Of a stretch of 64,000 bases of DNA, positions 3,501 to 24,609 are shown piece by piece. The notes beneath the pieces are model-generated. The model had not been told where the DNA came from. It searched no databases and saw nothing but the letters and a program-made list of their open reading frames with translations. The position numbers and the translations under genes were made by a program. The stretch is from Marsupella aquatica (lineage: Eukaryota > Plantae > Marchantiophyta). The stretch covers positions 8,729,079 through 8,793,078 of the forward strand of contig OZ316898.1 in NCBI GenBank assembly GCA_973895155.1. The letters are read 5' to 3'. How positions within the stretch are numbered: position 1 is the first letter of the stretch; each line of letters begins with the position of its first letter.

Positions 3501-3686
3501 ATTTAAGTCTTGTTTTTTAGAGACTATTGTTCATGCACAAAGGCAGTTTGAGGAGTGCGAGAAACCGCCGCGTCCAGGGATTGGGACCAATCAAAATACA
3601 GACAGGAAAAACTATCAGGTACATGTTGGAGCAACGCAAACTATTCTTGATCCGCTTTGTTTAAAGATTGTCAATGGTAGAGGTTT

Positions 3687-3869
3687 GCCTCGCCCCAAGG
3701 GCGAGGCTGCCTTTTCTTGTTTTCCTTGGTTAGAAGCAGATTAAAGCAAATGTTTGCCTCGCCCTCAGGGCGAGGCAACCTAGACTAGTCTCTCTAAGAA
3801 TAATTTCCTAGTTCCGTTTCAGTCAATTGCGGTGAGATGTAGAGGTTCGCCATGCCCTTGGGGCGAGGC
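3687..3869. repeat. Three more copies of the same 21-bp palindrome in predicted intron 2
   Basis: gcctcgccccaagggcgaggc (~3687), gcctcgccctcagggcgaggc (~3756), gccatgcccttggggcgaggc (~3849). Confidence 0.9.
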
Positions 3870-5340: not shown

Positions 5341-6585
5341 GATTTCACTCAGGCATATGGAAGGGTTCTCTACGAGAAAGTTCCTTCCATAATGAGTGAC
5401 CGGATGGTCGGTTCCCAATTTGGTAGAGCCCGCGATGGGGTTTCCGAGCATGTTGGTGCCAAAGAAGGCGTAGACCAGGGCGAAGATGATATTGAGGAAG
5501 GAGAATTGGGTCACGACACATACGACAGGGTCACCCAAAATTTGGATGAACGTGGAACACAAGTGGTAGGTATTCCCTACTTTGGTGTGGGGTTGGCCGA
5601 TGTTGTGGGTCGACCTGAGGGCGACTCACCAAGAAATCTCTTTGCCGGTGTAGAGAATTGGATGCACCAATCGGACCCAGATCTTACATTGTCCACATCG
5701 GACGCACATTGGAAGGCAACCGCAGATGGTCTAGGCAATATTGACGCAGTAGAATTGGGAGAAATGTCAAACATTGCGCTTGCAAAGGAGGATGATCGTC
5801 AAGTACCTGAGACCGTTGCAAATGAAGAAGAGAAGGCAGGTGCTTCAAATCCTCCCCTGTCTCCTCTATATTGCTCATCAGAGACTAAATTGGTTTTTAC
5901 AAGTGCTTCTACAGGAAGCCCTGTAGTATTATCATTTTCACAAAATTTTGGATCCGAGATCGGCAGGACTAGATATATGAAAACAGTCCGTCCTGCAACT
6001 CATTTTATATGGAGAAATGGACCAAAGGTTGGAATGATAGAATCACTAGACGATGCTCCAAAGATAATGGCAAAATCAGATTACAAAAAACTGAACTTGA
6101 GACTGAGCCCAGTTTTTGCACCCCCATCCTTTGAAGAGCAACTTCCCAGTGGTATCAATTCTGAGATACAGAGTGTTCTAGGTGATCAAACAATAGATGA
6201 ATTTGGGCATTTTAGCATTGGAAATTATTAGCCCTTTCTTTGGTTCTTGGTATTTTAATGACAATCTAAGCTTTATCTTTGTAATAATATACATTTTTAT
6301 AGACCAAAGTTTCGTCGTAGAATCTCCTTCCTCAAAGGATTTTATTGGCATTCCCTCGAAAAGCGTTGCTGTGGAGGAAGGGTTTGACCCAGGTATACTT
6401 TGGATCTAAAAAATGGCAAGTGAATGTAATTAATGTTTTTCTAGGAGGGTCGCCCCAGGGTCGTTCCTCTCTACTTCAAATGCTATAACAAAGTTTGTTT
6501 GATTTCAAATTTTGAGAGTTTTCCTCCATAGTAATTGTTTAAACTTTGAGTCGCATTGACTAAGGGCTTATTTTAATGTTTCCAG

Positions 6586-7624
6586 AATTCACTCCAATAC
6601 TACACTCTCCGATCCGGCGAAAGCTCTTGGTTCTTGACCTTAACAAGATTTGTTGGGATTGCATTAAGACCAGAAGCTCAGGACCATGGCAAAATCAGAC
6701 AAGTTTACGTGGTGTGCACTGGGGGAGACGTGGAGGGTTTAATTTCATGTATGTGGAGCGCCCATACCTCCACAAATTTCTATATGCAGCTTTCATGGTT
6801 TTTGATGTCGCAATTTGGACCTGTGCAAGGAGGCCAAAAACAATGGACTTAATGGAGTTGATTTTCACTGAGGAGGAGCGACAGAAGTTCAAGTTTGTCT
6901 TTACTCAAGAAGATACCTTTGATAGTTGCATCCAAAGGCCAGATATAACAGATGGGAAGGCCAATTTACTTCTGAAGAATTTGCAAACCATTTGGGACCG
7001 TTTTCCAGAAAATATGATGCTTCTAATACAGTTCTTATTGATGATTCTCCATTGAAGGCATTTTTGAATTATGACGAGAATGGATTGTTTCCAAATCCAT
7101 TTACTCACACAGCTTCAAATGACACTTTTTTGCCCGAGATATTATGGCCGTATCTTTGCAAATTGAGAAAGGCTTACTGCGTTCAACATTATATCACTGT
7201 CAACAATCCAAAGTGGTCTGTTTTCAATTTATTAACAAGCAAGGAGGATCATGTTGCCATCTATGCTCGTTTGGAACAGAAGTGGGGAGATTGTCGTTGT
7301 ATCCATAAGGAGTTTGGAACCATCTTGGATGTGACTCCTGAAGAGATTCCTTGGGACGGAAAGAACGAGGTGCAACATTACCCACCACTAGAGACGTGGA
7401 CCACGGATGAGATCGAAGAAACTGCAAACGTAATACTTGGAGACAACTATTCTGGTCCTCATACACAAAATAGAAGGCATTTTATTTGGAAAGTTCTCAG
7501 AACTAGGGATCTCACCAATAAGTTTAAGAACCACCATGCGAGAGATACTTGCAACCGTGACATCCGCTATGATAAATCAGGAAGTAGACTTTCTTGTTCA
7601 AATGAGTTTTGTCTTGATCATTAG
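6586..7624 (+). pseudogene. FCP1/NIF (NLI-interacting factor) HAD phosphatase-like domain, one frameshift near 7010
   Basis: KLLVLDLNK..., YVERPYLHKFL, FDVAIWTCA, LLKNLQTIWDRF then (other frame) YDASNTVLIDDSPLKAFLN are NIF-family motifs. DLN replaces DxD. Confidence 0.75.
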
Positions 7625-8279
7625 GAGATAGGGTTGCTCTAGTGCCTACCCTGAATTGTACATTCATATTATGTCAAAGGATATGTTTTGAACATGTAGG
7701 ATAATGTAAATAATTAGGATATGCTTAGTGTGAGGCTCTCTCACTGGATTGGACAATTTAATAATTATATAGTGGGTCAATCTCATTTTGACCCTTGATT
7801 TATGACCATCTATATTTTTTAATTTATAGATGGTCTGAGTGGTATTGGCCTCTGATTTTTGGACTAAATTAAATTTACTCTAATTTTTAAATTAATAGAA
7901 TATATGATTTAAGTTATTATTAAACATTTGGGTGAAAAAAATAAAATTTGGGCGTTCAAAAGTGTATATTTGGGCTGAAAAAAATTAGCTTTTGGGAATG
8001 CTTTAATAGAAATTTGGCCTGAAAAAAAATAACTTTAGGGTTCATCTTATGGACTTTTAAAAGTACAGTTTTAATGAATGCCGCGTCCCTAACCTGGGCC
8101 TTAAATCCAGTTTAGTGCCATGGTGCGACCTCGACCACCAGTAGGGGTGAGGGTTCGGGCAAGGAGGTGTGTAGTGTCCCCGATTAGCCCTAAGTCGGGC
8201 TAAGCCGATATACTTACTGGTATAACGCTTAAGCTATTCGTACTAGTCATAGGTATCTTTTATCTTCCACCGCTGGAAT

Positions 8280-11200
8280 TGTGATGCCTAGACAGGAATC
8301 ACTCGGCCGGTTAAGTGGGTAAAGCAGGAAGGCACCCTAGGAACACCTTAGTATAGTGACAAAACAAGGAAAATATAAACAATTAGGGGCAACCATGGAA
8401 CCCGGGCAGAGGCCGGAGGTAAGGCTGAGGGTGAAAACCCGATTAGGGTTAGGGCGCGTTAAGCGTCGGCGGCTAGGAAGGATCAACGGGAAGAAGGACC
8501 GGCAGAGGAGAGGGGTAAGGAGCGCTTGCAGGAGATGGTGGCTCATTTGCGAGCACGAACTAGGCAGACGACTACGGGAGGCCAACTACTGTCAGCTGCT
8601 TAGGCAAGCACTCGGGGAGAGAGTAGATACCGACGATCGACCTAAGGAGGGTATGAGCAACGTCAATCAAGCGGCACATTTCTGGGGATGCCTGTTCGAA
8701 CGGGCAACTGAGTACATCAAGACTTACGAGGACGAGGAGTCAGAAAGGGCAGCTCGAGAACGGCAGGAGCTCGCTCGATTGTGGGAGCTGCAGAAGACGG
8801 CTTTCTTAGGAGGCGAACTCATCAAGGACGAGTTCCTATGGACGCCTACTTCCAATCAACCCGACGATCTTCTGTTTTGCAAAGACAGCGTCGTCGGCAT
8901 CCGAGAGGCCATCAAGAACTGCAACGACATACACTGGGAATTAAAGGGTAGCACGGAAAGGTGGACCCGGGCAACGGTGCTAGGAGAAACCTCCACGGCA
9001 GCAGAGATGAAGAGGAAGGGGGCCGTCAACGATGAAGCCACCCCGGCAAAAAGAACGAGGTCGGCGGCACCAAAGAAGCCAGCCGAGCAGCAGAGCAAGG
9101 GGCAGGGAGAAGCCGAAGAGGAGGAGGTCGATCCCATCAAGGCCATTCCAACCAGGGATGACACCTGGAAGGGCTGGGCGGCAACCCTACCGGTGGAGGT
9201 GCAACTACATTTTGCACGGGAGGAGGATGCATGCTTTACGGCCATGCAGACCAAGAAGTACCAAGGCTTCATGGCCGGATCCAGCTTGGAGGCCTTTGTA
9301 AGATTACCATGGCTGAAGCCGGAGGTACCGGAGTCAGACCTATTAGAATTCGTGGGGTCATGGGAACCCGAGACCAATTGCACGAGGATATATGGGAAGG
9401 ATTTCTATCTTACTCCCAAGGTGATTGCCGAAGTGTTTGGCTTGCCGATGGGCAATAAGACCAAAGTTGATACCAGGAAGACCTTGCCTGACAAGGAGTT
9501 CCGGTCGTTCCCCGGGCCATCAACGAAGAATGGCTTCTTCCGGAACACCTGCACCAACCCGCACATAGGAGAGATGATCGACTTCTTGCGGGTGACCATG
9601 CATTGTAACTTACCGAGGGCAGAGATCGGCAAGGCACAGGTCTATCTGGCAGAAAGGCCAGACCCAAGCCGGGACTACAACGGGTACCTCCTCAACCAAT
9701 TGAAGAAGATCTTAAAGGAGGAGCAGCAGGTAATCGGCATGGGGAGCGTGTCGCGGCTTGGCTATCACATGCCGCTGTTGTGCCGGTATGCCAGAGGTCA
9801 GACTTTTGCCCCGGTACTTCCCCTGCAGGTAAGGGCACCCGAGGAAACTCCAACGCCGAGGCCGTTGGCTGAGAAGCCTCAACCACCTGTTAGTCCTACG
9901 ATCGAGCAGGTGTTTAGGCCCAAGAAGGAAGACTTGCCGATGCAGCAACCAGGCATGCAGAGTCTGCTGAAACTACTGGAGAAAGAAAAGAAATCGGCAT
10001 CGGCAACAACAACGGCAACGGCAACAATGCAGGACACTACTACAGAGGTAGGCCTACACCGGCTCACAAGAGAAAACCCCTTTGCTGGAGACAAGAAGAG
10101 AATCAGGCCGGAATCCAAGCCAGGTGTTCGAATGTACGTGGGAACCTCAACCTCCAAATCTGAGGCAGAATTGCCTGAAGCTCCTACCGAGGAAGAGGAG
10201 AGGGAGAAGCCGGACGTCCAAGAGGTAGAGGAGGCAGTGGAGGACTGCAACCATGATAATTCCGGCTATGGGTCGGACCATCACGTTCCAGGAGTAAGGA
10301 CCTGTGGCCGGTTTGTCCCCACACTTCCAAGGGTAGTGCGAGGGGACCCCAACCAGCAGAGTAGCCCTGAGTCTCCCCCACCAGATGTCGCTCCCCCGAG
10401 CTTCGACGGCATAAAACAGACGGTGCAGGAATTTCAGGAGCGAATCAAGCAGGAGGAAGAGGCCGCCCTGGCTAAGGAAAAGGATTTACCAGGAGGAGAT
10501 TGGCCGGAGGACATCAGGCGGCTAGCCGAAAAAGGAAGCAAACCTCTAGCCACGATTGAAGAGATCCGCAGGACGGCGTGGGAGCAGAGGCCACGATGGG
10601 CGATGCCGATCACTTCTACTTACTCCACCTACGCTAAGAATAGAGCCATGGAGTATGGTGAGATGTGTGGGGAACTTGCGCTCGGCATCTTTGGAGAGGA
10701 GTTGGAGGTAGGACCCTTTTTTCATAGGGAGCAGTTGGAGAAGCACCAATTAGAAGAAGCGGTGGCTTTAGAGAGAAGCAAGAAGGACGAGGTCATTCGG
10801 CGGCTTAGGAGGATGGAAGCCGAGATTGAAGATCTAAGGGCGGCCAAGAAAGCCCAAGATGAACTGCGGATTAAACGACATGAGCTGAACATCATGCAGG
10901 GGCAGTTGGACGCCGCGCAGGCTGATAATCAGAATATCAAGGATAAACTGACTCAGACACAGGAAGAGTTGGCCGACACGATCAAAGAGAGGGAAAAGTG
11001 GAAGCAAGAGCTGAAGAATACAGAGGAGGCCCACATAACAGCCAACAGCCGGGCCATGGCGGAGACCCAAAGAAAGGAATGGGCATTGAAAGGGGAGCTC
11101 GAGAAAATCCGCGGAGCCCTTGAGCAGAAGGAGGTCGAGTTAGGGAAATCCTATCAAGGGATTATGGCGCTGCAGCAGGAGCTTGCGTCCCTGACGGCCA

Positions 11201-12939
11201 GCTTCAAGGCCGACCTAAGGGAGAAGGACGAGATGCTCGAACAGACTTACGCCAAGATGAACCAGATGGAGTCTGTCATCATTGCAGAGCTCGACAAGGA
11301 GCTAAGAGCAACCCAGGAGGAGAGGGCTACCTTGAAGAAGGAATTGGAGAAAGCCCACAGGGAGCAGGAGGAGGCCAAAAACGAGCTGGAGGGGGCACGT
11401 AAGGACCTGGATGAAACCCAAGAGGAGTTGGAGGAAATCACGAGGAAGATGGAGAACCTACAGCGGCGGGCCGACAACCAAACAGAGCGGCTGAAGAAAC
11501 AAGCCGCAGTATTTAAATGCTTAGCTGCAGCAGGTCCATCTCCCGTTGGGACAAACCAGTTACCAGGGGTGGTAATTGCCGAAGGACAAGCCGCGTCAAC
11601 TGCACCAGTGCCGGAAGTAAGTGGGAAGGGGAAGGGACCAGCTGCCGAGCCACCAACGAAGAAGAAGCGGAAACCTTCAGGGTCAAGGAGTAATATGACT
11701 TCACAGGCCGTGGTGATCAAGGAGGTAGACCCAGCACCGACCCCAGACAGGGTCACGGCTAAGGATCCAACTACCCTAGGGGAAGGGGAGGCCGAGGCCG
11801 AGGGAGTGGCTGAAGCCGAAGCCGTGGGAGTGGCTGAGGCCGAAGCCGTGGGTATTGCCGAGGCCGGTGTCGAGGCTGAAGCCGAAGGTGGACCCAGTCA
11901 GGCCGATGGAGAGTTGACTCGGTCAAGGGCAGGTAATCTGTCAGTAGGCGGGCCAACGGCAGTGGCTGAGGAGGAAGTGTTGGGGGCGTCCATTGAGGAT
12001 CCACCACCGGTGTCGTGACGGTGCAAGGGCGCCGTTCCTTTTAGGGAGGGCGGACGTGGAGGGAGGAGGCGTGAGTGGGCAGGGCGGGCACGGATCTCCA
12101 CGTTTAGGATTAGGATCAGAACCAGGAGCGGCCCTGACACTTAGCTTAGTGGGATTGCGGTTCCACTGGTAGGAGCAACACTTGTGCTCCTGCCTTGCTG
12201 TACATAGGTAGATTCGGGCAAGTAGATTACTGTCAGGTAGATTAGGCTTACGATGCAAAGAATGGCGGATCCACTACCAGGATAAGTACCTGGGCAGCGG
12301 GGAGCTCAGGGCCTCTTCTTTAGCAAGTTTTTAGTTTGCACCAGCCGGGCTGGGATCAAGTAGTACGAGAAGCTCTCGGTTAGTCATACAGTGACCCTTG
12401 TGTATATTCATGTTTCCTCATGCCTAAGAGCTGAATAGAGTTGGCCTCACGGCTTAGTTCGCAGAACTTGTGTATGAGATGTACTGTTTGTATGGCAAGT
12501 GCATGGTATGACTCAGTCAGAATGAGTCATTTTGCTATTTGTGTGTCGCATTAACTTGTGTGAAGAGTGCCCACATCAACAGAAGGAAGGAAAGTAAGCA
12601 GGGGAGTGATAGTTGGATGTGTCGAGCTGAGAGAGGTCTTAGCGGCTTAACCAAGCCTATTGGGGATCATTCCGGCGGCGGAATCCAAACATACCTAACA
12701 AGACGGAGGGGAAGACAGGGGAAGACAAGGGAAGGCCTATATTAGGCCGGCTACGTATCTCATGACCCGATGAAGGATCTGTCCAGTATATGTGTGTAAA
12801 ATGTTAATAGTAGTAGTAGAAGGTTAGCAGCGTCCCATGCCGCTAAGCCGCGGAAACGGCCTCGCCAAGCACGAAACCTGTGGGAATCGGCTTGAGCTGG
12901 GGGGTTTCTTGGGTTTAGGGAGCCATGGGACGCACCACA
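8280..12939 (+). repeat. 5' LTR (4,660 bp)
   Basis: Starts TGTGATGCC, ends CGCACCACA; about 17 substitutions seen by eye versus the 3' LTR. Confidence 0.95.
8395..12018 (+). CDS. LTR-encoded ~1,207-aa protein (5' LTR copy): Arg-rich N-terminus, plant-retrotransposon accessory-ORF-like domain, long coiled coil, acidic repeat tail
   Basis: Open frame 8356-12018, first ATG 8395. LLEFVGSW...RIYGKDFYLTPKVIAEVFGLP resembles the Athila env-like/Transposase_32-type motif (by eye). Heptad-rich region ~10700-11510, PTKKKRKP NLS-like motif, EAEAVGV repeats. Confidence 0.8.
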   Translation: MEPGQRPEVRLRVKTRLGLGRVKRRRLGRINGKKDRQRRGVRSACRRWWLICEHELGRRLREANYCQLLRQALGERVDTDDRPKEGMSNVNQAAHFWGCLFERATEYIKTYEDEESERAARERQELARLWELQKTAFLGGELIKDEFLWTPTSNQPDDLLFCKDSVVGIREAIKNCNDIHWELKGSTERWTRATVLGETSTAAEMKRKGAVNDEATPAKRTRSAAPKKPAEQQSKGQGEAEEEEVDPIKAIPTRDDTWKGWAATLPVEVQLHFAREEDACFTAMQTKKYQGFMAGSSLEAFVRLPWLKPEVPESDLLEFVGSWEPETNCTRIYGKDFYLTPKVIAEVFGLPMGNKTKVDTRKTLPDKEFRSFPGPSTKNGFFRNTCTNPHIGEMIDFLRVTMHCNLPRAEIGKAQVYLAERPDPSRDYNGYLLNQLKKILKEEQQVIGMGSVSRLGYHMPLLCRYARGQTFAPVLPLQVRAPEETPTPRPLAEKPQPPVSPTIEQVFRPKKEDLPMQQPGMQSLLKLLEKEKKSASATTTATATMQDTTTEVGLHRLTRENPFAGDKKRIRPESKPGVRMYVGTSTSKSEAELPEAPTEEEEREKPDVQEVEEAVEDCNHDNSGYGSDHHVPGVRTCGRFVPTLPRVVRGDPNQQSSPESPPPDVAPPSFDGIKQTVQEFQERIKQEEEAALAKEKDLPGGDWPEDIRRLAEKGSKPLATIEEIRRTAWEQRPRWAMPITSTYSTYAKNRAMEYGEMCGELALGIFGEELEVGPFFHREQLEKHQLEEAVALERSKKDEVIRRLRRMEAEIEDLRAAKKAQDELRIKRHELNIMQGQLDAAQADNQNIKDKLTQTQEELADTIKEREKWKQELKNTEEAHITANSRAMAETQRKEWALKGELEKIRGALEQKEVELGKSYQGIMALQQELASLTASFKADLREKDEMLEQTYAKMNQMESVIIAELDKELRATQEERATLKKELEKAHREQEEAKNELEGARKDLDETQEELEEITRKMENLQRRADNQTERLKKQAAVFKCLAAAGPSPVGTNQLPGVVIAEGQAASTAPVPEVSGKGKGPAAEPPTKKKRKPSGSRSNMTSQAVVIKEVDPAPTPDRVTAKDPTTLGEGEAEAEGVAEAEAVGVAEAEAVGIAEAGVEAEAEGGPSQADGELTRSRAGNLSVGGPTAVAEEEVLGASIEDPPPVS

Positions 12940-12943
12940 TTTT

Positions 12944-12960
12944 TGGCGCTAGATGGAGGG
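12944..12960 (+). promoter_or_regulatory. Putative primer binding site
   Basis: TGGCGCTAGATGGAGGG, 4 nt after the 5' LTR CA. The cognate tRNA could not be assigned by eye. Confidence 0.7.
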
Positions 12961-13008
12961 GGCATTTCTTAAGCCGTGAGATATGAAGTTAGAACGGAAG
13001 CGTAGGTA

Positions 13009-14979
13009 ATGACTGACCTTACGCCGAGGGAAGAAAGAGTGATTCAACGGGAGAGAGCTCGACTGCAGCAGCTGGCCGGGTGGCATGATACACAGCAACT
13101 GAGAGGGGCAGAAAGAGCTGGTAGCTCCGAAACTGGAAGTGGCATCGAAGAAGACATACCAGAGGAAGAGTCGGTAAGGAGAAGTGAGTCTCCAACCGAC
13201 ATGGGGGAACCAGAGGCACGGCAAGACGAGAGGCCAGGGACCAGATTGAGCCAGCGGTCGCGCATACATTACAAAGCATTTCATGGGAGAGGAGATGAGG
13301 ATCCGGACGAATGGTTGGATGATTTCGAGGGAACCGCTGCAGCAAATGGAGAATCGGCCATCAAGATGCAGATTCTTCCCGGCCTGTTCAAGGGTGAGGC
13401 TAGGCCTTGGTACAGAGCATTAGATGTGGAAGATCAAGCCATCTGGGATATCTTCAAAACACTCTTTGTTAAGGAGTTTCGACCCATTGGAACTTCAGAA
13501 CTAGCAGTGCTGAAGTTGGGACAACTTCGGTTCAAGGAGAACAAATCCTTCAGGAAGTTCTTGCAACGCTTTCAGAAACTGGTAAGACGTACAAAGACCA
13601 ATGCATCTGAAGGTATGCAACTTCAATGGTTGGTGAATGCTTTGCCACAGAAGATGAGTTTTGCAATTAGGAAGGAGAACCCGGAGACTTTAGCCGAAGC
13701 AATTAAGGATATTCAATTATACATTAATGCAGATATCACAAGCCGGAAGAAACAGCTTAAGCCTGAGAGTTCCTCATCAGAGGAGGGATCACCCCATAAG
13801 AAAAAAGATAAGAAGAAGAAACATTCCAAGAAGTCTAGAAGTGATAAGTCAAGCTCGGATAGTGGGAGTAGCAAGAGTGAGTCATCTTCTAGTTCTGAAG
13901 AAGAAAAAACTAGGAAAAGGAAGGGCAGAAGGAGAGGGAAGACGAAAGTCAAGATGGAGGCTAAGCCACCAGATAACATCGTAGCCCTTACCGAGCAACT
14001 TAAGGCTATCATTGCAGAGGTAAAACCAAAGAAGGTAGTACAGGAGGATAGCTCTGTATGGTGTGCCTTATGTTATAAAACCGGACACCATAAAGATGCG
14101 TGTCCTAAGCTTAATACTAATCATGTTCGGCATGTGGCCGAGATCAGACCATGTCAGGGAGAAGTAGAGTACTTTTTGGGAGATGCCGCTGATAGTGTTT
14201 TCGGCATCAGTGAGACTGGAGCACGAGACCTATCCAACAGACCTGCATCTCTGTGGTCAGGGTTAAGGAACAATCCAGGAGAGATGTATCCTCGGATTAT
14301 TCAGAACCCGTCAGTACCTCCTAGGCCGAATGTGCAAAGATTTGCGGCGTGCTATAATTGTGGTCAACCTGGCCATTTTGCTAGAGAATGCCCGAATGCA
14401 CGCAAACAGGGTGATGGACAACCAGCTCAGCTATGTATGGGATGCCGACAGGAAGGTCATATGCTAGGGCAATGTCCTACTTGGTTGGCAGGCCTGGCCG
14501 CAAATCATAAGCTTTTGCCGATCAAGATCTTACCGCCAGGTACTACCCCCGGAGGAGTTCAAATCAACCACATCGAACTAGGATGGCAAGAGGATGCCGA
14601 GGCAGAGTTCGTACCATCTGATGATGAGGCCGAAGCCCTATCAACCTTCTCAAAGGAGGATTTAGATCATGATTGCTACCGGGTCTCTACTCGATCTACC
14701 AGAAGGAAGGAAAGGTGGGATGGGCTGGCCAAAAATAAAGGGAAGGTTACGGAGGAAAGGATCGACTCTTCGTCAACATCAACAGAAGGAGAAGGGAGGG
14801 CTCCGGCAATACAGGTAAGCCATGAGCCCACCAGTGAAACCAATCCTTCACAAGATAGCGACTTCAATCGAGATCATCCTAAGTTGTTCTACCCCTCTGT
14901 TACGGCTAGTGTTAAGGAACAACTAAGAGAATTAGAAACCCTGGAGAATACCGAAGCCATTGCCAAGGATGTAAAATGA
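13009..14979 (+). CDS. gag: Gag (retrotransposon gag domain + three CCHC zinc knuckles)
   Basis: FHGRGDEDPDEWLDDF...KGEARPWY...FVKEF capsid-like block; CALCYKTGHHKDAC, CYNCGQPGHFAREC, CMGCRQEGHMLGQC. Ends at a TGA in frame with the protease segment. Confidence 0.92.
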   Translation: MTDLTPREERVIQRERARLQQLAGWHDTQQLRGAERAGSSETGSGIEEDIPEEESVRRSESPTDMGEPEARQDERPGTRLSQRSRIHYKAFHGRGDEDPDEWLDDFEGTAAANGESAIKMQILPGLFKGEARPWYRALDVEDQAIWDIFKTLFVKEFRPIGTSELAVLKLGQLRFKENKSFRKFLQRFQKLVRRTKTNASEGMQLQWLVNALPQKMSFAIRKENPETLAEAIKDIQLYINADITSRKKQLKPESSSSEEGSPHKKKDKKKKHSKKSRSDKSSSDSGSSKSESSSSSEEEKTRKRKGRRRGKTKVKMEAKPPDNIVALTEQLKAIIAEVKPKKVVQEDSSVWCALCYKTGHHKDACPKLNTNHVRHVAEIRPCQGEVEYFLGDAADSVFGISETGARDLSNRPASLWSGLRNNPGEMYPRIIQNPSVPPRPNVQRFAACYNCGQPGHFARECPNARKQGDGQPAQLCMGCRQEGHMLGQCPTWLAGLAANHKLLPIKILPPGTTPGGVQINHIELGWQEDAEAEFVPSDDEAEALSTFSKEDLDHDCYRVSTRSTRRKERWDGLAKNKGKVTEERIDSSSTSTEGEGRAPAIQVSHEPTSETNPSQDSDFNRDHPKLFYPSVTASVKEQLRELETLENTEAIAKDVK

Positions 14980-15999
14980 GCAAAAGCATTGTTTGCTTCG
15001 GAAGACCCAACAGCTGTGGAGACTAGCGTGGCAAAACTGGCCGAATCCAAGACGGAAACACCACCAGAAGAGAAGCCGATTGTTCCCTATGACCTGGCTA
15101 AAGATGTACTAGAATCTAGAGTCTCGGCAACAGTAGGTCAACTATTGAAAAATAGCCCGTACTTCCGGAAGCAATTAAGGAAGGCTATTCTCAGCAAGCC
15201 GAGATTACCCAAGGTAGCAACCAGATCCGACGTACTAATGATAGAAGAAGATCAAGGAGCCCCAACATTACCATTAATGATTCAAGGAGAATTATTACTA
15301 CGGGTACCCATCGATGGAGGATCAGGGGTATGTATTATGATTGATTCAACAGCAAAAGGGTGGGGTCTAACACCGGAGATGACTGGAAGAGTGTTGAACA
15401 TGGCCAATGGATATCAGGTCATTCCGACGGGAGTGTTAACCGGCATCAAGACAGAGATAGGAGGTATCTTCTTTAGCATTAACTATGTAGTAATGAAGCC
15501 GGTAAATCCTACGTCATTCCGGCTATTGATTGGTAGGCCATGGCTGTACCTAGCCGAGGTAATAGAAGATTGGGGTAAAAAGCAGTTCACTTTCGGGACC
15601 CCCTCTATCACGGTATCCTGGGACACTAAGGATGACCGTAGGAAAAGCATAAGGGAAGTAGATGGGTACGATAGTGGACTGGAGTCAGCCGATGAAGTAC
15701 GTTGGTTAGAATGCCTCACTAACCTAACCGAAGAAGGTGTCTTTGGACCAGAGGTACCCCCCAGCGGATTATGGCAAGAACCAATGGAAGGTGACTTGGA
15801 AGAAGAAGACGAAGAGGTCGAGGACTGCTTTACAATAGAATCCACCTTTTTAGCTGCAATTCCGGAGGAAGTAAAGGATGTAGACCAATTGGATGAAACG
15901 GCTAAGTGGGGAGCAGTAGCAGGGACAGTGGATTTTCTGCAGGCGTTGTGGCAGAGCCGACGGGGTCCACAACGCCATCGATCATCGGCAAGGAATTAA
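14980..15999 (+). CDS. Aspartic protease segment (same frame as gag, after an in-frame TGA)
   Basis: VPIDGGSGVCIM active-site-like motif and LLIGRPWL. Confidence 0.85.
   Translation, partial: AKALFASEDPTAVETSVAKLAESKTETPPEEKPIVPYDLAKDVLESRVSATVGQLLKNSPYFRKQLRKAILSKPRLPKVATRSDVLMIEEDQGAPTLPLMIQGELLLRVPIDGGSGVCIMIDSTAKGWGLTPEMTGRVLNMANGYQVIPTGVLTGIKTEIGGIFFSINYVVMKPVNPTSFRLLIGRPWLYLAEVIEDWGKKQFTFGTPSITVSWDTKDDRRKSIREVDGYDSGLESADEVRWLECLTNLTEEGVFGPEVPPSGLWQEPMEGDLEEEDEEVEDCFTIESTFLAAIPEEVKDVDQLDETAKWGAVAGTVDFLQALWQSRRGPQRHRSSARN
15930..15989 (+). promoter_or_regulatory. Candidate -1 programmed ribosomal frameshift signal (slippery heptamer + H-type pseudoknot)
   Basis: G_GAT_TTT at 15930-15936 in the protease frame, 5-nt spacer, perfect 10-bp stem 15942-15951/15967-15976; loop GCCGA (15956-15960) complementary to TCGGC (15985-15989). 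The RT ORF is in the -1 frame. Confidence 0.7.
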
Positions 16000-18900
16000 A
16001 TACCAAGGGATCGGCATACAAGCCGTTTACGAGGGCAGAACAAATTGAGGCCCTATTAGAAGCCGAGAGAGCACAGCGGCCTAACTCTCAGGAGCAAGAG
16101 GTGGATGAGATGGACAGACACGATCTAGAGCCAAGGCAGGAAGGGGAGCCGACCACTAATTCAAAACCAAATAGACCGGTAAGGGGACAATCTATGGACA
16201 CCAAGGAAGGGACCGACTCGGCTAGTCCAGCCGAGATCCCAGTTTATGGAGGTATGAGATTAGAGAGACTGGAAGCCGAACTGGACCCGAATTTGAAGAA
16301 GCAGATTAATATGATCCAAGCACGGCAATATCGGAAGCTCGACTTAGGAGAGGGAAGAGAACTGAACTTAGGGAGAAACCTAGCACCTGAGCTCGAGAAA
16401 GAGATCAGTGACTTATTGATTGAATTTCAGGATGTGTTTGCATGGAGTCACCAAGATCTAAAGGGAGTAGATCCAACACTAGGGGAACATCGAATTGATC
16501 TCATGTTAGGAGCCAAATTATTTCGACAACCAATTCGAAGGATGAACCCGAAGTATTCCCTGCTGGTCAAAACAGAAATCGACAAACTAGTGGAAGCTGG
16601 ATTCATCACTCCAGTCCTGCATTCAGACTGGGTGTCTCCAATTGTGATAGTTCCCAAGAAAGCTGGACCCGATGGTAAACCCAAGATCCGGGTTTGTCAG
16701 GATTACAGGAAGCTGAATGAAGCAACATTAAAAGACCATTTTCCTTTACCGTTTACTGATATGGTACTAGACATGGTAGCCAGTCATGAACTATATTCAT
16801 TCATGGATGGATACTCTGGTTATAACCAAATCAGGATTCGGCAGGAAGACCAAATCAAGACGGCCTTCATCACGGAATGGGGGATCTATGTCTTCAATCG
16901 TATGCCGTTTGGACTCTGCAACGCACCAGCTATGTTCCAACGATTAATGGTGAACATTTTTCATGATTACTTGAGAAAGTTCATGGAAATCTTCATTGAT
17001 GACTTTGCAGTATTCGGGAAGGCATCGAAACATGCTAAATACCTCAGGAAAACCTTCATGAGATGTAGAGAGGTGGGTCTCAAGTTACACCCCGATAAAT
17101 GTTTTTTTTGCAGTAACCGAGGGGGTGCTACTAGGTCACAAGGTATCAAGGAAGGGCATTGAGATTGACAAAGGTAAGCTAGCAGTATGGCTAGATATCA
17201 TGCAACCTAAGAACATAAAGGATGTAAGATCCTTCTTGGGATGCATTGGTTACTATCGCCGGTTCATCAAGGATTTTGCCAAGCTGGCTTTACCATTAAC
17301 CAATATGCTCAAGGCAGGAGCAGACTTCGAACCCACACCCGAACGAGTCACAGCGGTGGTAGAATTGAAGCAGATGTTAGTAGAGGCCCCAGTCATGATA
17401 GCACCGGACTGGAACAAAGATTTTCATGTTTTTGTAGATGTCTCGGGCTTCTGTATTGGCTCAGTACTAAGTCAGTTGGATGAGAAAGGAAGGGACCATC
17501 CCATATACTTCGCAAGCCGTCAGCTTGCCGATGCCAAACGGAACTACTCTACCACGGAAAGAGAAGCATTAGGAGTCATTTATTCTTGTAAAAAGTTTAG
17601 GCATTATTTACTAGGGTACAAGGTAATCTTTCATACTGATCATGAAAGTTTGAAGTACCTAGTCAATAAGCCGGACCTTACAGGCAGAGTAGCAAGATGG
17701 ATTTTGCTATTACAGGAGTTTGACTATGAGCTGAGGATCAAGCCGGGAAAGTTACATGCCAATGCCGACTTCTTTTCAAGGATCACAGGTAAACCTGCCA
17801 CGGATTGCATCGATGATCGATTCCCCGACGAGGAGCTATTCGTTGTGGAGATAGCTGGTACATGGTACCCTGAGATTTTACAATTTCTCAGCACTTCCAG
17901 ATTACAGCCAGGATTAAGCCGAGAGCAAGCCGCAGTCTTTGTGCGAAAGGTCAGACAGTATCAGTGCATTAAAGGCATACTGCACAAGCATGGAATCAAC
18001 GGCACGATTCAAAGGTGTTTGGAAAAGAGAGAGGTAAAACGAGTCCTACGGGCCATGCATGGAGAGGAGGCCGGAGGACATTTTGCCCCAGTAACCACGT
18101 CTAAGAAGATATTAAATGCCGGTTACTGGTGGCCCACCTTGCACAAAGATGTCTATCAGTTTATCAAACAATGCGATCCTTGTCAACGAGCGGGAGGACC
18201 AAGGGCGTCCACCAGGCATCCACTGCACCCTATTCTACCTCTGGCACCATTCGAGAAGTGGGGTATTGATTACATTGGACCTCTGAAACCACTGACCCAC
18301 CCTCGACGGAACAAGTACATAATCCTGGCTACGGATTATGCAACTAAATGGGTAGAGGCCAGACCAACAACGAAGGATGATGCAATTACTACGGCTAGAT
18401 TCATGTATGAGCAGATCTTCACCAGGTATGGAGCACCCCTAGAATTAGTTAGTGATAGAGGAACCCATTTTTTGAATGATATAATTAGTCGTTTAAATGA
18501 GCAGTATTTAGTTAAACATAGGCCTACTACTCCCTACCATCCAAAGGCAAACGGGTTGACAGAACGAGCAAACGGAATCATAGGAAAGATATTGAACAAG
18601 ACAGTAGCTCAGAACAAACTCGATTGGGATGATAAATTGTTTGCTGCTGTTTTTGCTTACAATCTTGCCTATAAATCCACTACCGGTCATACACCCTTCT
18701 TCTTAACCTTTGGACAAGAAGCCCTGGTACCCATGCAACTTGAGATACCGACATTTCAAGTTACAATTGAGGAAAGAGCCTCAGCGGAGGAGAGCCTAAA
18801 GGAGCGAGAATATAGGTTAGAAGCTTTAGAGGAAGCGAGAATGATTTCAGCCGAGAGAGTAGAATATAGACAGAATATCATGAAGCAGCAGTATGATAAA

Positions 18901-19173
18901 AGGTTAAAAGTAGTTAGTATTCATACCGGTGATCTTGTGCTACTTTATGACAGTAGGTATAGTAGGTTTCCAGGAAAGCTTTACACTCACTGGTTAGGAC
19001 CCTTTAGAGTAACCATGATGTTCCCCAATGGCTCCGTACAATTGGCCAACATTACGGGAGAGGTATATCCAGTTCGCATCCATTATGACCGCCTCAAGAA
19101 ATACTATATGGACGAAGATGAAGTTGTTCGTGAGGACGCTTCACAATTAAGTGGGGAGCTATGTGATGCCTAG
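15930..19173 (+). CDS. pol: Pol: reverse transcriptase, RNase H, integrase (one frameshift in T8 run 17102-17109)
   Basis: RVCQDYRKLN, MDGYSGYNQI, MPFGLCNAPA, FIDDF (RT); VDVSGFCIGSVL, RNYSTTEREAL, TDH (RH); H-H-C-C, GIDY...SDRG...NGLTERAN, GPF (INT). Removing one T restores PDKCFFAVTEGVLLGH. The stop codon lies inside the 3' LTR. Confidence 0.93.
19149..19161 (+). promoter_or_regulatory. Polypurine tract
   Basis: AAGTGGGGAGCTA immediately before the 3' LTR TG, inside the integrase reading frame. Confidence 0.7.
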
Positions 19174-22100
19174 ACAGGAATCACTCGGCCGGTTAAGTGG
19201 GTAAAGCAGGAAGGCACCCTAGGAACACCTTAGTATAGTGACAAAACAAGGAAAATATAAACAATTAGGGGCAACCATGGAACCCGGGCAGAGGCCGGAG
19301 GTAAGGCTGAGGGTGAAAACCCGATTAGGGTTAGGGCGCGTTAAGCGTCGGCGGCTAGGAAGGATCAACGGGAAGAAGGACCGGCAGAGGAGAGGGGTAA
19401 GGAGCGCTTGCAGGAGATGGTGGCTCATTTGCGAGCACGAACTAGGCAGACGACTACGGGAGGCCAACTACTGTCAGCTGCTTAGGCAAGCACTCGGGGA
19501 GAGAGTAGATACCGACGATCGACCTAAGGAGGGTATGAGCAACGTCAATCAAGCGGCACATTTCTGGGGATGCCTGTTCGAACGGGCAACTGAGTACATC
19601 AAGACTTACGAGGACGAGGAGTCAGAAAGGGCAGCTCGAGAACGGCAGGAGCTCGCTCGATTGTGGGAGCTGCAGAAGACGGCTTTCTTAGGAGGCGAAC
19701 TCATCAAGGACGAGTTCCTATGGACGCCTACTTCCAATCAACTCGACGATCTTCTGTTTTGCAAAGACAGCGTCGTCGGCATCCGAGAGGCCATCAAGAA
19801 CTGCAACGACATACACTGGGAATTAAAGGGTAGCACGGAAAGGTGGACCCGGGCAACGGTGCTAGGAGAAACCTCCACGGCAGCAGAGATGAAGAGGAAG
19901 GGGGCCGTCAACGATGAAGCCACCCCGGCAAAAAGAACGAGGTCGGCGGCACCAAAGAAGCCAGCCGAGCAGCAGAGCAAGGGGCAGGGAGAAGCCGAAG
20001 AGGAGGAGGTCGATCCCATCAAGGCCATTCCAACCAGGGATGACACCTGGAAGGGCTGGGCGGCAACCCTACCGGTGGAGGTGCAACTACATTTTGCACG
20101 GGAGGAGGATGCATGCTTTACGGCCATGCAGACCAAGAAGTACCAAGGCTTCATGGCCGGATCCAGCTTGGAGGCCTTTGTAAGATTACCATGGCTGAAG
20201 CCGGAGGTACCGGAGTCAGACCTATTAGAATTCGTGGGGTCATGGGAACCCGAGACCAATTGCACGAGGATATATGGGAAGGATTTCTATCTTACTCCCA
20301 AGGTGATTGCCGAAGTGTTTGGCTTGCCGATGGGCAATAAGACCAAAGTTGATACCAGGAAGACCTTGCCTGACAAGGAGTTCCGGTCGTTCCCCGGGCC
20401 ATCAACGAAGAATGGCTTCTTCCGGAACACCTGCACCAACCCGCACATAGGAGAGATGATCGACTTCTTGCGGGTGACCATGCATTGTAACTTACCGAGG
20501 GCAGAGATCGGCAAGGCACAGGTCTATCTGGCAGAAAGGCCAGACCCAAGCCGGGACTACAACGGGTACCTCCTCAACCAATTGAAGAAGATCTTAAAGG
20601 AGGAGCAGCAGGTAATCGGCATGGGGAGCGTGTCGCGGCTTGGCTATCACATGCCGCTGTTGTGCCGGTATGCCAGAGGTCAGACTTTTGCCCCGGTACT
20701 TCCCCTGCAGGTAAGGGCACCCGAGGAAACTCCAACGCCGAGGCCGTTGGCTGAGAAGCCTCAACCACCTGTTAGTCCTACGATCGAGCAGGTGTTTAGG
20801 CCCAAGAAGGAAGACTTGCCGATGCAGCAACCAGGCATGCAGAGTCTGCTGAAACTACTGGAGAAAGAAAAGAAATCGGCATCGGCAACAACAACGGCAA
20901 CGGCAACAATGCAGGACACTACTACAGAGGTAGGCCTACACCGGCTCACAAGAGAAAACCCCTTTGCTGGAGACAAGAAGAGAATCAGGCCGGAATCCAA
21001 GCCAGGTGTTCGAATGTACGTGGGAACCTCAACCTCCAAATCTGAGGCAGAATTGCCTGAAGCTCCTACCGAGGAAGAGGAGAGGGAGAAGCCGGACGTC
21101 CAAGAGGTAGAGGAGGCAGTGGAGGACTGCAACCATGATAATTCCGGCTATGGGTCGGACCATCACGTTCCAGGAGTAAGGACCTGTGGCCGGTTTGTCC
21201 CCACACTTCCAAGGGTAGTGCGAGGGGACCCCAACCAGCAGAGTAGCCCTGAGTCTCCCCCACCAGATGTCGCTCCCCCGAGCTTCGACGGCATAAAACA
21301 GACGGTGCAGGAATTTCAGGAGCGAATCAAGCAGGAGGAAGAGGCCGCCCTGGCTAAGGAAAAAGATTTACCAGGAGGAGATTGGCCGGAGGACATCAGG
21401 CGGCTAGCCGAAAAAGGAAGCAAACCTCTAGCCACGATTGAAGAGATCCGCAGGACGGCGTGGGAGCAGAGGCCACGATGGGCGATGCCGATCACTTCTA
21501 CTTACTCCACCTACGCTAAGAATAGAGCCATGGAGTATGGTGAGATGTGTGGGGAACTTGCGCTCGGCATCTTTGGAGAGGAGTTGGAGGTAGGACCCTT
21601 TTTTCATAGGGAGCAGTTGGAGAAGCACCAATTAGAAGAAGCGGTGGCTTTAGAGAGAAGCAAGAAGGACGAGGTCATTCGGCGGCTTAGGAGGATGGAA
21701 GCCGAGATTGAAGATCTAAGGGCGGCCAAGAAAGCCCAAGATGAACTGCGGATTAAACGACATGAGCTGAACATCATGCAGGGGCAGTTGGACGCCGCGC
21801 AGGCTGATAATCAGAATATCAAGGATAAACTGACTCAGACACAGGAAGAGTTGGCCGACACGATCAAAGAGAGGGAAAAGTGGAAGCAAGAGCTGAAGAA
21901 TACAGAGGAGGCCCACATAACAGCCAACAGCCGGGCCATGGCGGAGACCCAAAGAAAGGAATGGGCGTTGAAAGGGGAGCTCGAGAAAATCCGCAGAGCC
22001 CTTGAGCAGAAGGAGGTCGAGTTAGGGAAATCCTATCAAGGGATTATGGCGCTGCAACAGGAGCTTGCGTCCTTGACGGCCAGCTTCAAGGCCGACCTAA

Positions 22101-23821
22101 GGGAGAAGGACGAGATGCTCGAACAGACTTACGCCAAGATGAACCAGATGGAGTCTGTCATCATTGCAGAGCTCGACAAGGAGCTAAGAGCAACCCAGGA
22201 GGAGAGGGCTACCTTGAAGAAGGAATTGGAGGAAGCCCACAGGGAGCAGGAGGAGGCCAAAAACGAGCTGGAGGGGGCACGTAAGGACCTGGATGAAACC
22301 CAAGAGGAGTTGGAGGAAATCACGAGGAAGATGGAGAACCTACAGCGGCGGGCCGACAACCAAACAGAGCGGCTGAAGAAACAAGCCGCAGTATTTAAAT
22401 GCTTAGCTGTAGCAGGTCCATCTCCCGTTGGGACAAACCAGTTACCAGGGGTGGTAATTGCCGAAGGACAAGCCGCGTCAACTGCACCAGTGCCGGAAGT
22501 AAGTGGGAAGGGGAAGGGACCAGCTGCCGAGCCACCAACGAAGAAGAAGCGGAAACCTTCAGGGTCAAGGAGTAATACGACTTCACAGGCCGTGGTGATC
22601 AAGGAGGTAGACCCAGCACCGACCCCAGACAGGGTCACGGCTAAGGATCCAACTACCCTAGGGGAAGGGGAGGCCGAAGCCGAGGGAGTGGCTGAAGCCG
22701 AAGCCGTGGGAGTGGCTGAGGCCGAAGCCGTGGGTATTGCCGAGGCCGGTGTCGAGGCTGAAGCCGAAGGTGGACCCAGTCAGGCCGATGGAGAGTTGAC
22801 TCGGTCAAGGGCAGGTAATCTGTCAGTAGGCGGGCCAACGGCAGTGGCTGAGGAGGAAATGTTGGGGGCGTCCATTGAGGATCCACCACCGGTGTCGTGA
22901 CGGTGCAAGGGCGCCGTTCCTTTTAGGGAGGGCGGACGTGGAGGGAGGAGGCGTGAGTGGGCAGGGCGGGCGCAGATCTCCACGTTTAGGATTAGGATCA
23001 GAACCAGGAGCGGCCCTGACACTTAGCTTAGTGGGATTGCGGTTCCACTGGTAGGAGCAACACTTGTGCTCCTGCCTTGCTGTACATAGGTAGATTCGGG
23101 CAAGTAGATTACTGTCAGGTAGATTAGGCTTACGATGCAAAGAATGGCGGATCCACTACCAGGATAAGTACCTGGGCAGCGGGGAGCTCAGGGCCTCTTC
23201 TTTAGCAAGTTTTTAGTTTGCACCAGCCGGGCTGGGATCAAGTAGTACGAGAAGCTCTCGGTTAGTCATACAGTGACCCTTGTGTATATTCATGTTTCCT
23301 CATGCCTAAGAGCTGAATAGAGTTGGCCTCACGGCTTAGTTCGCAGAACTTGTGTATGAGATGTACTGTTTGTATGGCAAGTGCATGGTATGACTCAGTC
23401 AGAATGAGTCATTTTGCTATTTGTGTGTCGCATTAACTTGTGTGAAGAGTGCCCACATCAACAGAAGGAAGGAAAGTAAGCAGGGGAGTGATAGTTGGAT
23501 GTGTCGAGCTGAGAGAGGTCTTAGCGGCTTAACCAAGCCTATTGGGGATCATTCCGGCGGCGGAATCCAAACATACCTAACAAGACGGAGGGGAAGACAG
23601 AGGAAGACAAGGGAAGGCCTATATTAGGTCGGCTACGTATCTCATGACCCGATGAAGGATCTGTCCAGTATATGTGTGTAAAATGTTAATAGTAGTAGTA
23701 GAAGGTTAGCAGCGTCCCATGCCGCTAAGCCGCGGAAACGGCCTCGCCAAGCACGAAACCTACGGGAATCGGCTTGAGCTGGGGGGTTTCTTGGGTTTAG
23801 GGAGCCATGGGACGCACCACA
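19162..23821 (+). repeat. 3' LTR (4,660 bp)
   Basis: Direct repeat of 8280-12939, followed by TSD GGAAT. Confidence 0.95.
19277..22900 (+). CDS. LTR-encoded ~1,207-aa protein (3' LTR copy)
   Basis: Open frame 19238-22900; differs from the 5' copy by about 6 amino-acid changes and no indels. Confidence 0.8.
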   Translation: MEPGQRPEVRLRVKTRLGLGRVKRRRLGRINGKKDRQRRGVRSACRRWWLICEHELGRRLREANYCQLLRQALGERVDTDDRPKEGMSNVNQAAHFWGCLFERATEYIKTYEDEESERAARERQELARLWELQKTAFLGGELIKDEFLWTPTSNQLDDLLFCKDSVVGIREAIKNCNDIHWELKGSTERWTRATVLGETSTAAEMKRKGAVNDEATPAKRTRSAAPKKPAEQQSKGQGEAEEEEVDPIKAIPTRDDTWKGWAATLPVEVQLHFAREEDACFTAMQTKKYQGFMAGSSLEAFVRLPWLKPEVPESDLLEFVGSWEPETNCTRIYGKDFYLTPKVIAEVFGLPMGNKTKVDTRKTLPDKEFRSFPGPSTKNGFFRNTCTNPHIGEMIDFLRVTMHCNLPRAEIGKAQVYLAERPDPSRDYNGYLLNQLKKILKEEQQVIGMGSVSRLGYHMPLLCRYARGQTFAPVLPLQVRAPEETPTPRPLAEKPQPPVSPTIEQVFRPKKEDLPMQQPGMQSLLKLLEKEKKSASATTTATATMQDTTTEVGLHRLTRENPFAGDKKRIRPESKPGVRMYVGTSTSKSEAELPEAPTEEEEREKPDVQEVEEAVEDCNHDNSGYGSDHHVPGVRTCGRFVPTLPRVVRGDPNQQSSPESPPPDVAPPSFDGIKQTVQEFQERIKQEEEAALAKEKDLPGGDWPEDIRRLAEKGSKPLATIEEIRRTAWEQRPRWAMPITSTYSTYAKNRAMEYGEMCGELALGIFGEELEVGPFFHREQLEKHQLEEAVALERSKKDEVIRRLRRMEAEIEDLRAAKKAQDELRIKRHELNIMQGQLDAAQADNQNIKDKLTQTQEELADTIKEREKWKQELKNTEEAHITANSRAMAETQRKEWALKGELEKIRRALEQKEVELGKSYQGIMALQQELASLTASFKADLREKDEMLEQTYAKMNQMESVIIAELDKELRATQEERATLKKELEEAHREQEEAKNELEGARKDLDETQEELEEITRKMENLQRRADNQTERLKKQAAVFKCLAVAGPSPVGTNQLPGVVIAEGQAASTAPVPEVSGKGKGPAAEPPTKKKRKPSGSRSNTTSQAVVIKEVDPAPTPDRVTAKDPTTLGEGEAEAEGVAEAEAVGVAEAEAVGIAEAGVEAEAEGGPSQADGELTRSRAGNLSVGGPTAVAEEEMLGASIEDPPPVS

Positions 23822-24609
23822 GGAATCCTCCCTCAGTTAGTGACTCGGACTAACTCCCGGCTTGGGGCTTTTCAAGCCATCGACGCGAAAGAACTTTGTG
23901 ACATACAATGGGTGGCAATCCCTACCATTAGTCCACACCCGGTACGTCCCTTAAAATGGTGCCTTTGCCCAGACAAAGCATACTCACCACACCAGTTACT
24001 TGCAGAAACATTAGAGGGAAAAGACTACATTTACTTAGCAAAGCATCAGTTTACATGGTTGATTCGACTTCAAAGGGGGTCAGCAGGCCCAATGGCAGTC
24101 GATGCCCAGTCTCTACGAGGCCCCGCCTCGCACTTGCCCAACAAGCTCGACTCTGGCTCTCACTCCTTAGTGCGCTCTGACCCTGCTCAGGCCGGGACTC
24201 CCCGTGCCTCACCTATCTTTTGCCGAGATAACTAAGCCTTCTCCCCCTTCCATAGCGGAAGGGGAAGCCTAAATACTACAGTTTGCGGAAGAGAACCGGA
24301 GGATACTACCTTTCGGGATACTACCTACTGCCTAACTACCTTGACTACTGGTCGTGCCGCACTGACCGGTTGACCGTCGACGACAAGGGTGCCAACCGGG
24401 ATGGCAGCGGCCAAGCCTTTTGACAAAAATCTAGTCCATTGATGAACTCCATCCTTTGTTGGCTGATCCTAACTGATCCGGCCCTAATTCTTCCTACTGC
24501 CGCTAATCGGTGCCTAATGACAGTCATTCTGTCGTTGCACCTAACCGAAAGATGTCGTTGTCTTAACTGCCTCGCGTGGCGCCTGCTTCCACCCTTCGCT
24601 AACCACCCC

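Follow-up and report, generated by a model that had tools for sequence, protein, structure and literature searches.

A candidate programmed -1 frameshift signal between protease and reverse transcriptase in a high-copy Ty3/gypsy retrotransposon family, found in Marsupella aquatica

We analysed a window of 64,000 nt from Marsupella aquatica (assembly GCA_973895155.1, contig OZ316898.1, positions 8,729,079-8,793,078 of the forward strand; coordinates below are positions in this window). The window contains a complete 15.5-kb Ty3/gypsy retrotransposon, of the long terminal repeat (LTR) class, that hosts a candidate signal for -1 ribosomal frameshifting between its putative protease (PR) and its reverse transcriptase (RT). 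The element lies on the + strand and is flanked by a 5-bp target-site duplication with identical letters at both ends (GGAAT, 8275-8279 on the left and 23822-23826 on the right). Direct-repeat comparison of its ends with each other delimits a 5' LTR (8280-12939) and a 3' LTR (19162-23821), each 4660 bp long and of the TG...CA form. The two LTRs are 99.6% identical, and their 17 differences are transitions only.

The 6.2-kb internal region carries all of its open reading frames (ORFs) on the + strand. The gag ORF (13006-14979, first ATG at 13009) has Retrotrans_gag and zinc knuckle matches. ORF2 (14980-15999) is in the frame of gag and encodes protease motifs and an acidic linker before a TAA stop at 15997-15999. 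ORF3 (15906-17162) is in the -1 frame and encodes a linker followed by the reverse transcriptase (Pfam RVT_1 at residues 250-403). ORF4 (17062-19173) encodes the end of RT, RNase H and the integrase (Pfam H2C2 and rve). The domain order gag, RVT_1, RT_RNaseH, Integrase_H2C2, rve, together with the TG..CA LTRs and the 5-bp duplication, places the element in Ty3/gypsy (Metaviridae). Pfam searches of ORF4 returned neither a chromodomain, which chromoviruses carry at the C-terminus of the integrase, nor, at E<=0.01, an RNase_H or RVT_3 match that would represent the additional archaeal-type RNase H of the Tat/Ogre/Retand group; the element is therefore filed neither as a chromovirus nor in the Tat/Ogre clade.

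The translation of ORF2 contains the motifs IDGGSG and LIGRPWL, both of which are kept in four relatives. Its Pfam Asp_protease match is sub-threshold (E 0.24), an AlphaFold model of the protease was too poor for a fold search (pLDDT 48.8) and a search of PDB sequences with the protease returned nothing meaningful. On the strength of its motifs, ORF2 probably carries the protease, so the frameshift site would lie between protease and RT.

ORF2 and ORF3, as given by the ORF list, overlap by 94 nt (15906-15999). ORF2 codons start at positions that are 1 mod 3 (GAT 15931-15933, TTT 15934-15936) and ORF3 codons at positions that are 0 mod 3, which corresponds to a -1 offset. The heptamer G_GAU_UUU (GGATTTT, 15930-15936), read directly from the sequence, is in phase with ORF2. 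A 5-nt spacer follows (CTGCA, 15937-15941, likewise read directly), in which three of the five positions vary between subfamilies of the element. The spacer leads into a hairpin (15942-15976) that is evident both on direct reading and on folding. This hairpin has a perfect 10-bp stem, S1, in which GGCGTTGTGG (15942-15951) pairs with CCACAACGCC (15967-15976), and a 15-nt loop. Its calculated energy is -17.0 kcal/mol alone and -21.8 kcal/mol with a 3-bp helix at the top. The -1 frame opens at 15906, and the zero-frame TAA lies 61 nt past the slip site.

The overlap thus brings together a -1 ORF, an in-phase heptamer of a working type and a structure 5 nt downstream, the components of a -1 frameshift cassette. 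The linker that contains the slip site is long and acidic. An alignment of ORF2 with the relative P0005 reaches residue 281, that of ORF3 begins only at residue 112, and the cassette therefore lies in a family-specific stretch.

Part of the hairpin loop (GCCGA, 15956-15960) is complementary to TCGGC at 15985-15989, which would form a candidate 5-bp pseudoknot stem, S2 (15956-15989). The letters ATCGGCA that include this downstream partner (15984-15990) recur 26 nt on at 16010-16016, providing a second possible partner for the loop; the second occurrence is altered in two diverged sequences found at the loose ends of contigs from sister copies. An earlier reading of the window from its letters alone (hereafter, the original prediction) had described the phased heptamer, the 5-nt spacer, the perfect 10-bp stem, the 5-bp loop pairing and the -1 overlap, and each of these lies exactly where it was said to lie.

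We asked how rare such an arrangement is. The heptamers considered were the canonical X_XXY_YYZ types (Y = A or T) plus GGATTTT, and among these the 15930 site is the single in-phase slippery heptamer in the 998 gag-PR codons. The S1 hairpin is the sole perfect hairpin of at least 10 bp with a loop of 3-25 nt in the 15.5-kb element. The + strand of the whole window holds eight distinct hairpins of this class, against a mean of 1.45 in shuffled sequences (n=20). The segment 15937-16000 folds at -23.0 kcal/mol (z -2.6; 3 of 200 shuffles equally stable), and 15900-16060 has a z of -2.8. When the internal region was scanned in 616 overlapping 70-nt windows, stability peaked at -28.9 kcal/mol for those with starts at 15910-15930 (mean -13.0, sd 4.3). 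That the one in-phase slip site and the one 10-bp hairpin should share a 94-nt overlap by chance is very unlikely.

Sister copies of the element were compared in eight public runs that contain the stretch, which come from five organisms and one air metagenome; none is on record as RNA. A coarse comparison used contigs on 14800-17300 at 85% likeness, and a fine comparison used contigs on 15895-16015 at 80% likeness with a threshold of 1% of depth. The family is very high-copy, with summed word depths in the thousands in runs X1 and X3. No indels at 10% of depth or more are listed for 14800-16740 in the runs of four organisms from four studies, and none at 1% or more for 15895-16015, organism E included. 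Gapless contigs span the site at depths of 4072 (X3, 15788-16062), 30.5 (X2, 15552-16316) and 13.8 (X6, 15748-16013). Collinearity persists even in contigs that differ at up to 23 places in 118 nt, and the fifth organism contributes a contig (X8) in which 4 differences over 89 nt come with 0 gaps. The original prediction had named protease and RT sharing one frame in most family members as its refutation; with no indels listed across the site, this test does not refute it.

Within the range taken as assessable in the fine comparison (15926-15984), twelve places vary: 15926, 15927 and 15929; 15937-15939 in the spacer; 15945; 15960, 15962 and 15965 in the loop; and 15977 and 15980. Position 15945, in a stem arm, varies at only 1-2% of depth, with no partner change listed. 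The heptamer and the 3' stem arm show no variant at 1% of depth or more in four runs. One of the 27 heptamer and arm positions is variable, against 11 of the 32 others (Fisher p=0.0037). The same distinction is found at third codon positions of the -1 frame, of which none of eight is variable in the heptamer and arms and seven of twelve elsewhere (p=0.015). The frozen positions, third codon sites among them, point to constraint on the RNA and not on the protein only.

Several of the variable sites are in the majority state in X3, and a second, more abundant subfamily is therefore present in that run. Its contigs align over 15930-15975 only, where depth is 2-3 times that of the flanks. The loose ends of diverged subfamilies retain the length after the stem, the zero-frame TAA in its position, an open -1 frame and the TCGGC partner.

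The differences between copies also bear on which frames are translated. The stretch 16026-17096 holds 23 of the best-supported differences; 18 of them leave the amino acid unchanged in the frame of ORF3 and only 2 do so in the frame of ORF2, a pattern indicating that RT is under purifying selection in the -1 frame. In 14856-15736, by comparison, 5 of 13 differences are synonymous in the ORF2 frame and most of the others are conservative; the -1 frame in this region contains stops. The family thus appears to have diversified with protease and RT read in different frames, which is hard to reconcile with a dead RT.

Two further frame defects in the window copy were compared in the same runs. An in-frame TGA (14977-14979, + strand) separates gag from the protease. 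The letter at 14977 differs from that of the window, creating a sense codon, in most of the depth of X1 (10706 of 10853 units), X2 (73 of 79) and X3 (21173 of 21623), and the relatives P0004 and P0005 likewise have a sense codon where they align with it. We considered the TGA as a readthrough signal after gag and rejected it because nearly all other copies carry the sense codon (~93-99% of depth in the three runs); it is a private or rare lesion of this copy. The second defect is a run of eight T in the RT core (17102-17109, + strand), at which the frame breaks from ORF3 to ORF4. Contigs whose run is one letter shorter reach depths of 3021 in X1 and 3687 in X3, similar to the main window-type contigs, and make up 108 of 108 units in X2. 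A second recoding site at this run was likewise rejected, because contigs of main-subfamily depth differ in run length. The break is either a lesion of this or a few copies or a homopolymer assembly error.

Neither the TGA nor the T8 break is family-wide, and the -1 offset is thereby set apart from decay. The contention of the original prediction that the offset is a recoding signal and not decay is thus supported on four counts: the offset is family-wide, the heptamer and stem arms are invariant, RT is apparently under purifying selection and the other two breaks are absent from most of the family.

We consider it likely, from the letters of the window and of its sister copies, that the family uses programmed -1 ribosomal frameshifting to make an excess of Gag-PR over a small amount of Gag-PR-Pol. 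Slippage, its efficiency and a stimulator that is either a hairpin or a pseudoknot are what we infer for the site. The hairpin 5 nt downstream would hold the ribosome at the heptamer, where the tRNAs on GAU-UUU could re-pair on GGA-UUU, and a minority of ribosomes would slip back by one base. Unshifted ribosomes would terminate 61 nt on, at the TAA at 15997-15999, and release Gag-PR. Shifted ribosomes would read ORF2 to Asp318-Phe319 and continue in ORF3 from Ser11, yielding a Gag-PR-RT-RNaseH-integrase protein. The slippage rate would thereby set the ratio of structural protein to enzyme, much as in retroviruses.

Several points weigh against programmed frameshifting. The comparison of copies draws entirely on short Logan contigs (unitigs) and their k-mer depths, in which copies are unphased. 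Variants below 1% of depth are invisible to the comparison, the differences from the coarse comparison are the 40 best-supported of 237, and the assessable range of 15926-15984 was deduced from a table that seems confined to places at least 31 nt from stretch ends. Runs X2 and X3 possibly include the source of the window itself and are thus not fully independent. Compensatory changes in the stem were not seen, the arms being virtually invariant. The original prediction had called for conservation with covariation; the offset, the heptamer and the stem are indeed kept, but arms that never vary leave no covariation to be seen. Part of the invariance could reflect shared ancestry, the subfamilies being young and related.

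Other points concern the element and its relatives. Protease and RT are in one frame in P0004-P0007, the closest protein relatives found (38-43% identity; 4 of 4 matches of ORF2 to longer proteins), and P0005 runs from gag through integrase in one protein. The -1 offset is therefore derived within the lineage of this family. The window copy carries two other frame defects and is for that reason probably dead; the signal is a property of the family. GGAUUUU is a non-canonical heptamer, for which re-pairing in the P site is imperfect. Finally, a GT..AG pair (15791-15942, 152 nt) could also join the two frames.

A variant of the same frameshift would require an H-type pseudoknot as stimulator, a plain hairpin being insufficient. 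It would consist of S1 (10 bp), S2 (GCCGA/UCGGC) and loops of 4, 6 and 8 nt, and we regard it as rather unlikely. All five S2 pairs exist, the substitution A15960G that is common in other subfamilies would leave a G-U pair, and TCGGC lies at a constant distance in the two diverged loose-end sequences, where the 8-nt linker differs at five positions. S2 is weak, however (-6.9 kcal/mol as a free duplex), and competes with the nested 3-bp helix, whose formation lowers the hairpin energy from -17.0 to -21.8 kcal/mol. TCGGC also encodes a conserved Ile-Gly in the -1 frame, such that its conservation may be at the level of protein, and at 15985-15989 it falls outside the assessable range. For the 8-nt connecting loop and the 6-nt interstem loop, precedents are the long-stem-1 type of infectious bronchitis virus (IBV) and the 7-nt interstem loop of Visna-Maedi virus (PMC5009743). 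Neither the top 3-bp helix nor S2 is cleanly conserved, and the conserved core is the 10-bp stem. The pseudoknot of the original prediction is a candidate, present as a 5-bp complementarity between loop and downstream sequence.

We judge it improbable that the offset is inherited damage. Under this explanation, a one-base change arose in the linker of a master copy, the family spread as the non-autonomous passenger of a helper, and the heptamer and hairpin reflect chance or another RNA role such as packaging or dimerisation. The window copy does have two ordinary lesions, the distant relatives are single-frame, and invariance of a stem among closely related subfamilies is, in the absence of covariation, no proof of pairing. 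Nevertheless, RT differences that are synonymous in the -1 frame in 18 of 23 cases are unexpected if RT is untranslated, and the synonymous sites of the signal are frozen (0/8) next to variable neighbours (7/12). The joint placement of slip site and hairpin in the 94-nt overlap is, as noted, very unlikely by chance.

Splicing of the Ogre type, in which a short intron between protease and RT is removed from some transcripts (e.g. GT 15791-AG 15942, 152 nt), has a precedent at this very junction in the Ogre elements of pea and Medicago (PMC6317226). The 152-nt interval is of the right length class, and TTTTCTGCAG|G at 15933-15943 resembles an acceptor, with CAG retained in the variant spacer. 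We nonetheless consider splicing very improbable, since 379 frame-joining GT..AG pairs arise by chance, the interval that would be removed is stop-free coding sequence for acidic residues (in Ogre a gap lies between the ORFs, which have no overlap; PMC6317226), and the invariant 10-bp stem and the phase of the heptamer would be left unexplained. The six pairs that pass a crude filter are not like plant introns because their composition (48-53% A+T, 16-22% T) matches the mean of the element. Contigs that skip 15791-15942 are absent from four runs, which is weak evidence in the same direction.

We also searched for further relatives of the family. A HMMER search with ORF2 against 1.84 billion representatives gave 325 matches at E<=0.001. 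Nine of the 150 listed matches were inspected, and these are short pieces or ORFs running from the end of gag to the linker without RT, for which the frames are untraceable without DNA. One 106-aa protein (P0125) is 56% identical to ORF2 residues 243-319, with Asp-Leu in place of the Asp-Phe of the window. It ends 4 residues past the equivalent of the slip site, where a stop and the end of a contig are indistinguishable; a sister family whose ORF ends similarly may be its source. A protein search with the ORF3 linker (residues 1-125) gave no match.

Metagenome relatives were assessed among the best 80 of 122 confirmed loci, whose RT identity is 36-65%. The closest of these (L001) is a decayed 1-kb piece that stops short of the slip site. 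A survey of protease and RT frames in the same 80 found a protease in two loci only, one in the same frame as RT and one at +1. The exact pattern of heptamer plus stem had 0 matches in the genome-contig and viral-contig collections.

The mechanism proposed here is classical. The heptamer is shared with the umbravirus PEMV2 (pea enation mosaic virus 2), and its placement recalls retroviral pro-pol sites. Dianthoviruses are likewise users of G_GAU_UUU. The original prediction described GGAUUUU as a working slippery site, which agrees with its function as a -1 site in PEMV2 (PMC4737148; PMC5009743); reports also exist for mesoniviruses, totiviruses and others. PEMV2 resembles the present family in having the identical heptamer, translation by plant ribosomes and a nearby downstream hairpin. 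It belongs to an unrelated genetic system (an RNA virus replicase), with a stop 3 nt past the site and three modulating hairpins, whereas the stop here is 61 nt on and one 10-bp hairpin dominates (for PEMV2, PMC4737148 and PMC5009743).

Among retroviruses, the pro-pol sites of mouse mammary tumour virus (MMTV) and human T-cell leukaemia virus (HTLV) share with the present site a heptamer and a downstream structure after the protease, an arrangement in which Gag-PR is abundant and the RT-integrase fusion is rare. Unlike these vertebrate retroviruses, the host element here is a retrotransposon with LTRs in a plant, its heptamer (G_GAU_UUU) is non-canonical and the signals have no homology. MMTV and HTLV also have a gag-pro shift, whereas a single shift is proposed here. 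In alpharetroviruses the protease is in the frame of gag and a single shift leads to pol. Frameshifting at HTLV-1 pro-pol and in Rous sarcoma virus is described in PMC5009743.

Plant elements mostly have a single ORF (PMC5580714), in agreement with the original prediction, which stated that most plant Gypsy elements have a single gag-pol frame. For 14 lineages of plant gypsy elements, Neumann et al. 2019 (PMC6317226, Additional file 5) tabulate which ORF organisation prevails. Ogre has GAG-PROT:_:RT-RH-INT in 35% of elements and Retand has GAG-PROT:s:RT-RH-INT in 49%; GAG-PROT:o:RT-RH-INT is the prevailing form of no lineage among the 14 (PMC6317226). Ogre, with its spliced gap, and Retand, with its single stop, are like the present family in interrupting the same junction to the same apparent purpose, and in being large elements with LTRs of up to 5 kb. 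They differ in that the ORFs here overlap in different frames and that the extra RNase H which defines Tat (PMC6317226) was not found here. Overlapping ORFs in different frames prevail in the plant and algal gypsy lineages Selgy and Tcn1, in the form GAG:o:PROT-RT-RH-INT (PMC6317226). Their overlap lies between GAG and PROT in elements of 5-6 kb, whereas the overlap here lies after PROT in an element of 15.5 kb; Selgy further has a 4-bp target duplication in place of the 5 bp seen here.

We found no description of a -1 frameshift in a plant LTR retrotransposon in the literature searched, a body of work that most subscription journals lie outside. It is possible, and we suggest it tentatively, that an abundant and recently active land-plant Ty3/gypsy family sets its ratio of Gag-PR to Pol by -1 frameshifting. 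This would be a third, independent solution beside Ogre splicing and the Retand stop and, as far as searched, the first such signal in a plant LTR element, one that reuses the heptamer of plant RNA viruses. Only part of the answer is available to how plant LTR retrotransposons produce Gag in excess of Pol, the known means being splicing (Ogre and the copia-type shGAG RNAs) and stop codons. If the proposal is true, ribosomal frameshifting joins the plant repertoire, in the form of a compact 110-nt element that lends itself to direct tests with plant translation systems. Annotators of such elements should not score a break in frame between protease and RT as decay.

The LTRs themselves carry a long ORF. 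A sense-strand ORF of 1225 codons from stop to stop, with its first ATG at codon 19, is present in each LTR (8341-12018 and 19223-22900, + strand) and takes up ~79% of each 4.66-kb repeat. Its N-terminal half is protein-like and its C-terminal half is a long coiled coil. Pfam returned only a sub-threshold coiled-coil match (ATG16), and no homologue was found among proteins of 673-2144 aa. The copy in the 3' LTR would probably lie in U3 and act as an extra gene at the 3' end of the genomic RNA, which is reminiscent of MMTV sag, likewise a gene within an LTR. A 702-codon ORF on the opposite strand, 1 kb past the 3' LTR (24904-27012, - strand), is distantly paralogous to the ORF of the LTRs (27% identity across 244 residues, pairwise E 9e-22) and has a similar central domain and a coiled-coil tail. 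The window thus holds at least two occurrences of the protein family to which the LTR ORF belongs.

The 5' LTR is followed by TTTT and then TGGCGCTAGATGGAGG (12940-12960), a likely primer-binding site. A purine-rich tract, AAGTGGGGAG (19149-19161), directly precedes the 3' LTR, and the pol ORF ends 12 nt into that LTR. An Rfam search over 12900-19200 returned nothing relevant, and no tRNA genes were found within the window. For the integrase ORF, most of the nearest Atlas clusters belong to Streptophyta.

Outside the element, the window contains pieces of host genes and repeats. An intron-less gene (43080-46292, - strand) encodes a 1071-aa leucine-rich repeat (LRR) receptor kinase with an LRRNT_2 domain. 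Rieske and PaO (pheophorbide a oxygenase) exons lie at 37468-40530 (+) and a VID27-like protein at 61001-62890 (+). Fragments correspond to BRCT (34693-35370, +), CDK5RAP3 (55800-56441, +) and NIF phosphatase (6926-7621, +), and two ORFs (2710-3744 and 3877-6231) have no Pfam match. Four tandem-repeat arrays all lie outside the element: 1589-1992 (period ~65 nt), 29983-30735 (~87-171 nt, irregular), 40791-41543 (197 nt) and 41998-42363 (182 nt).

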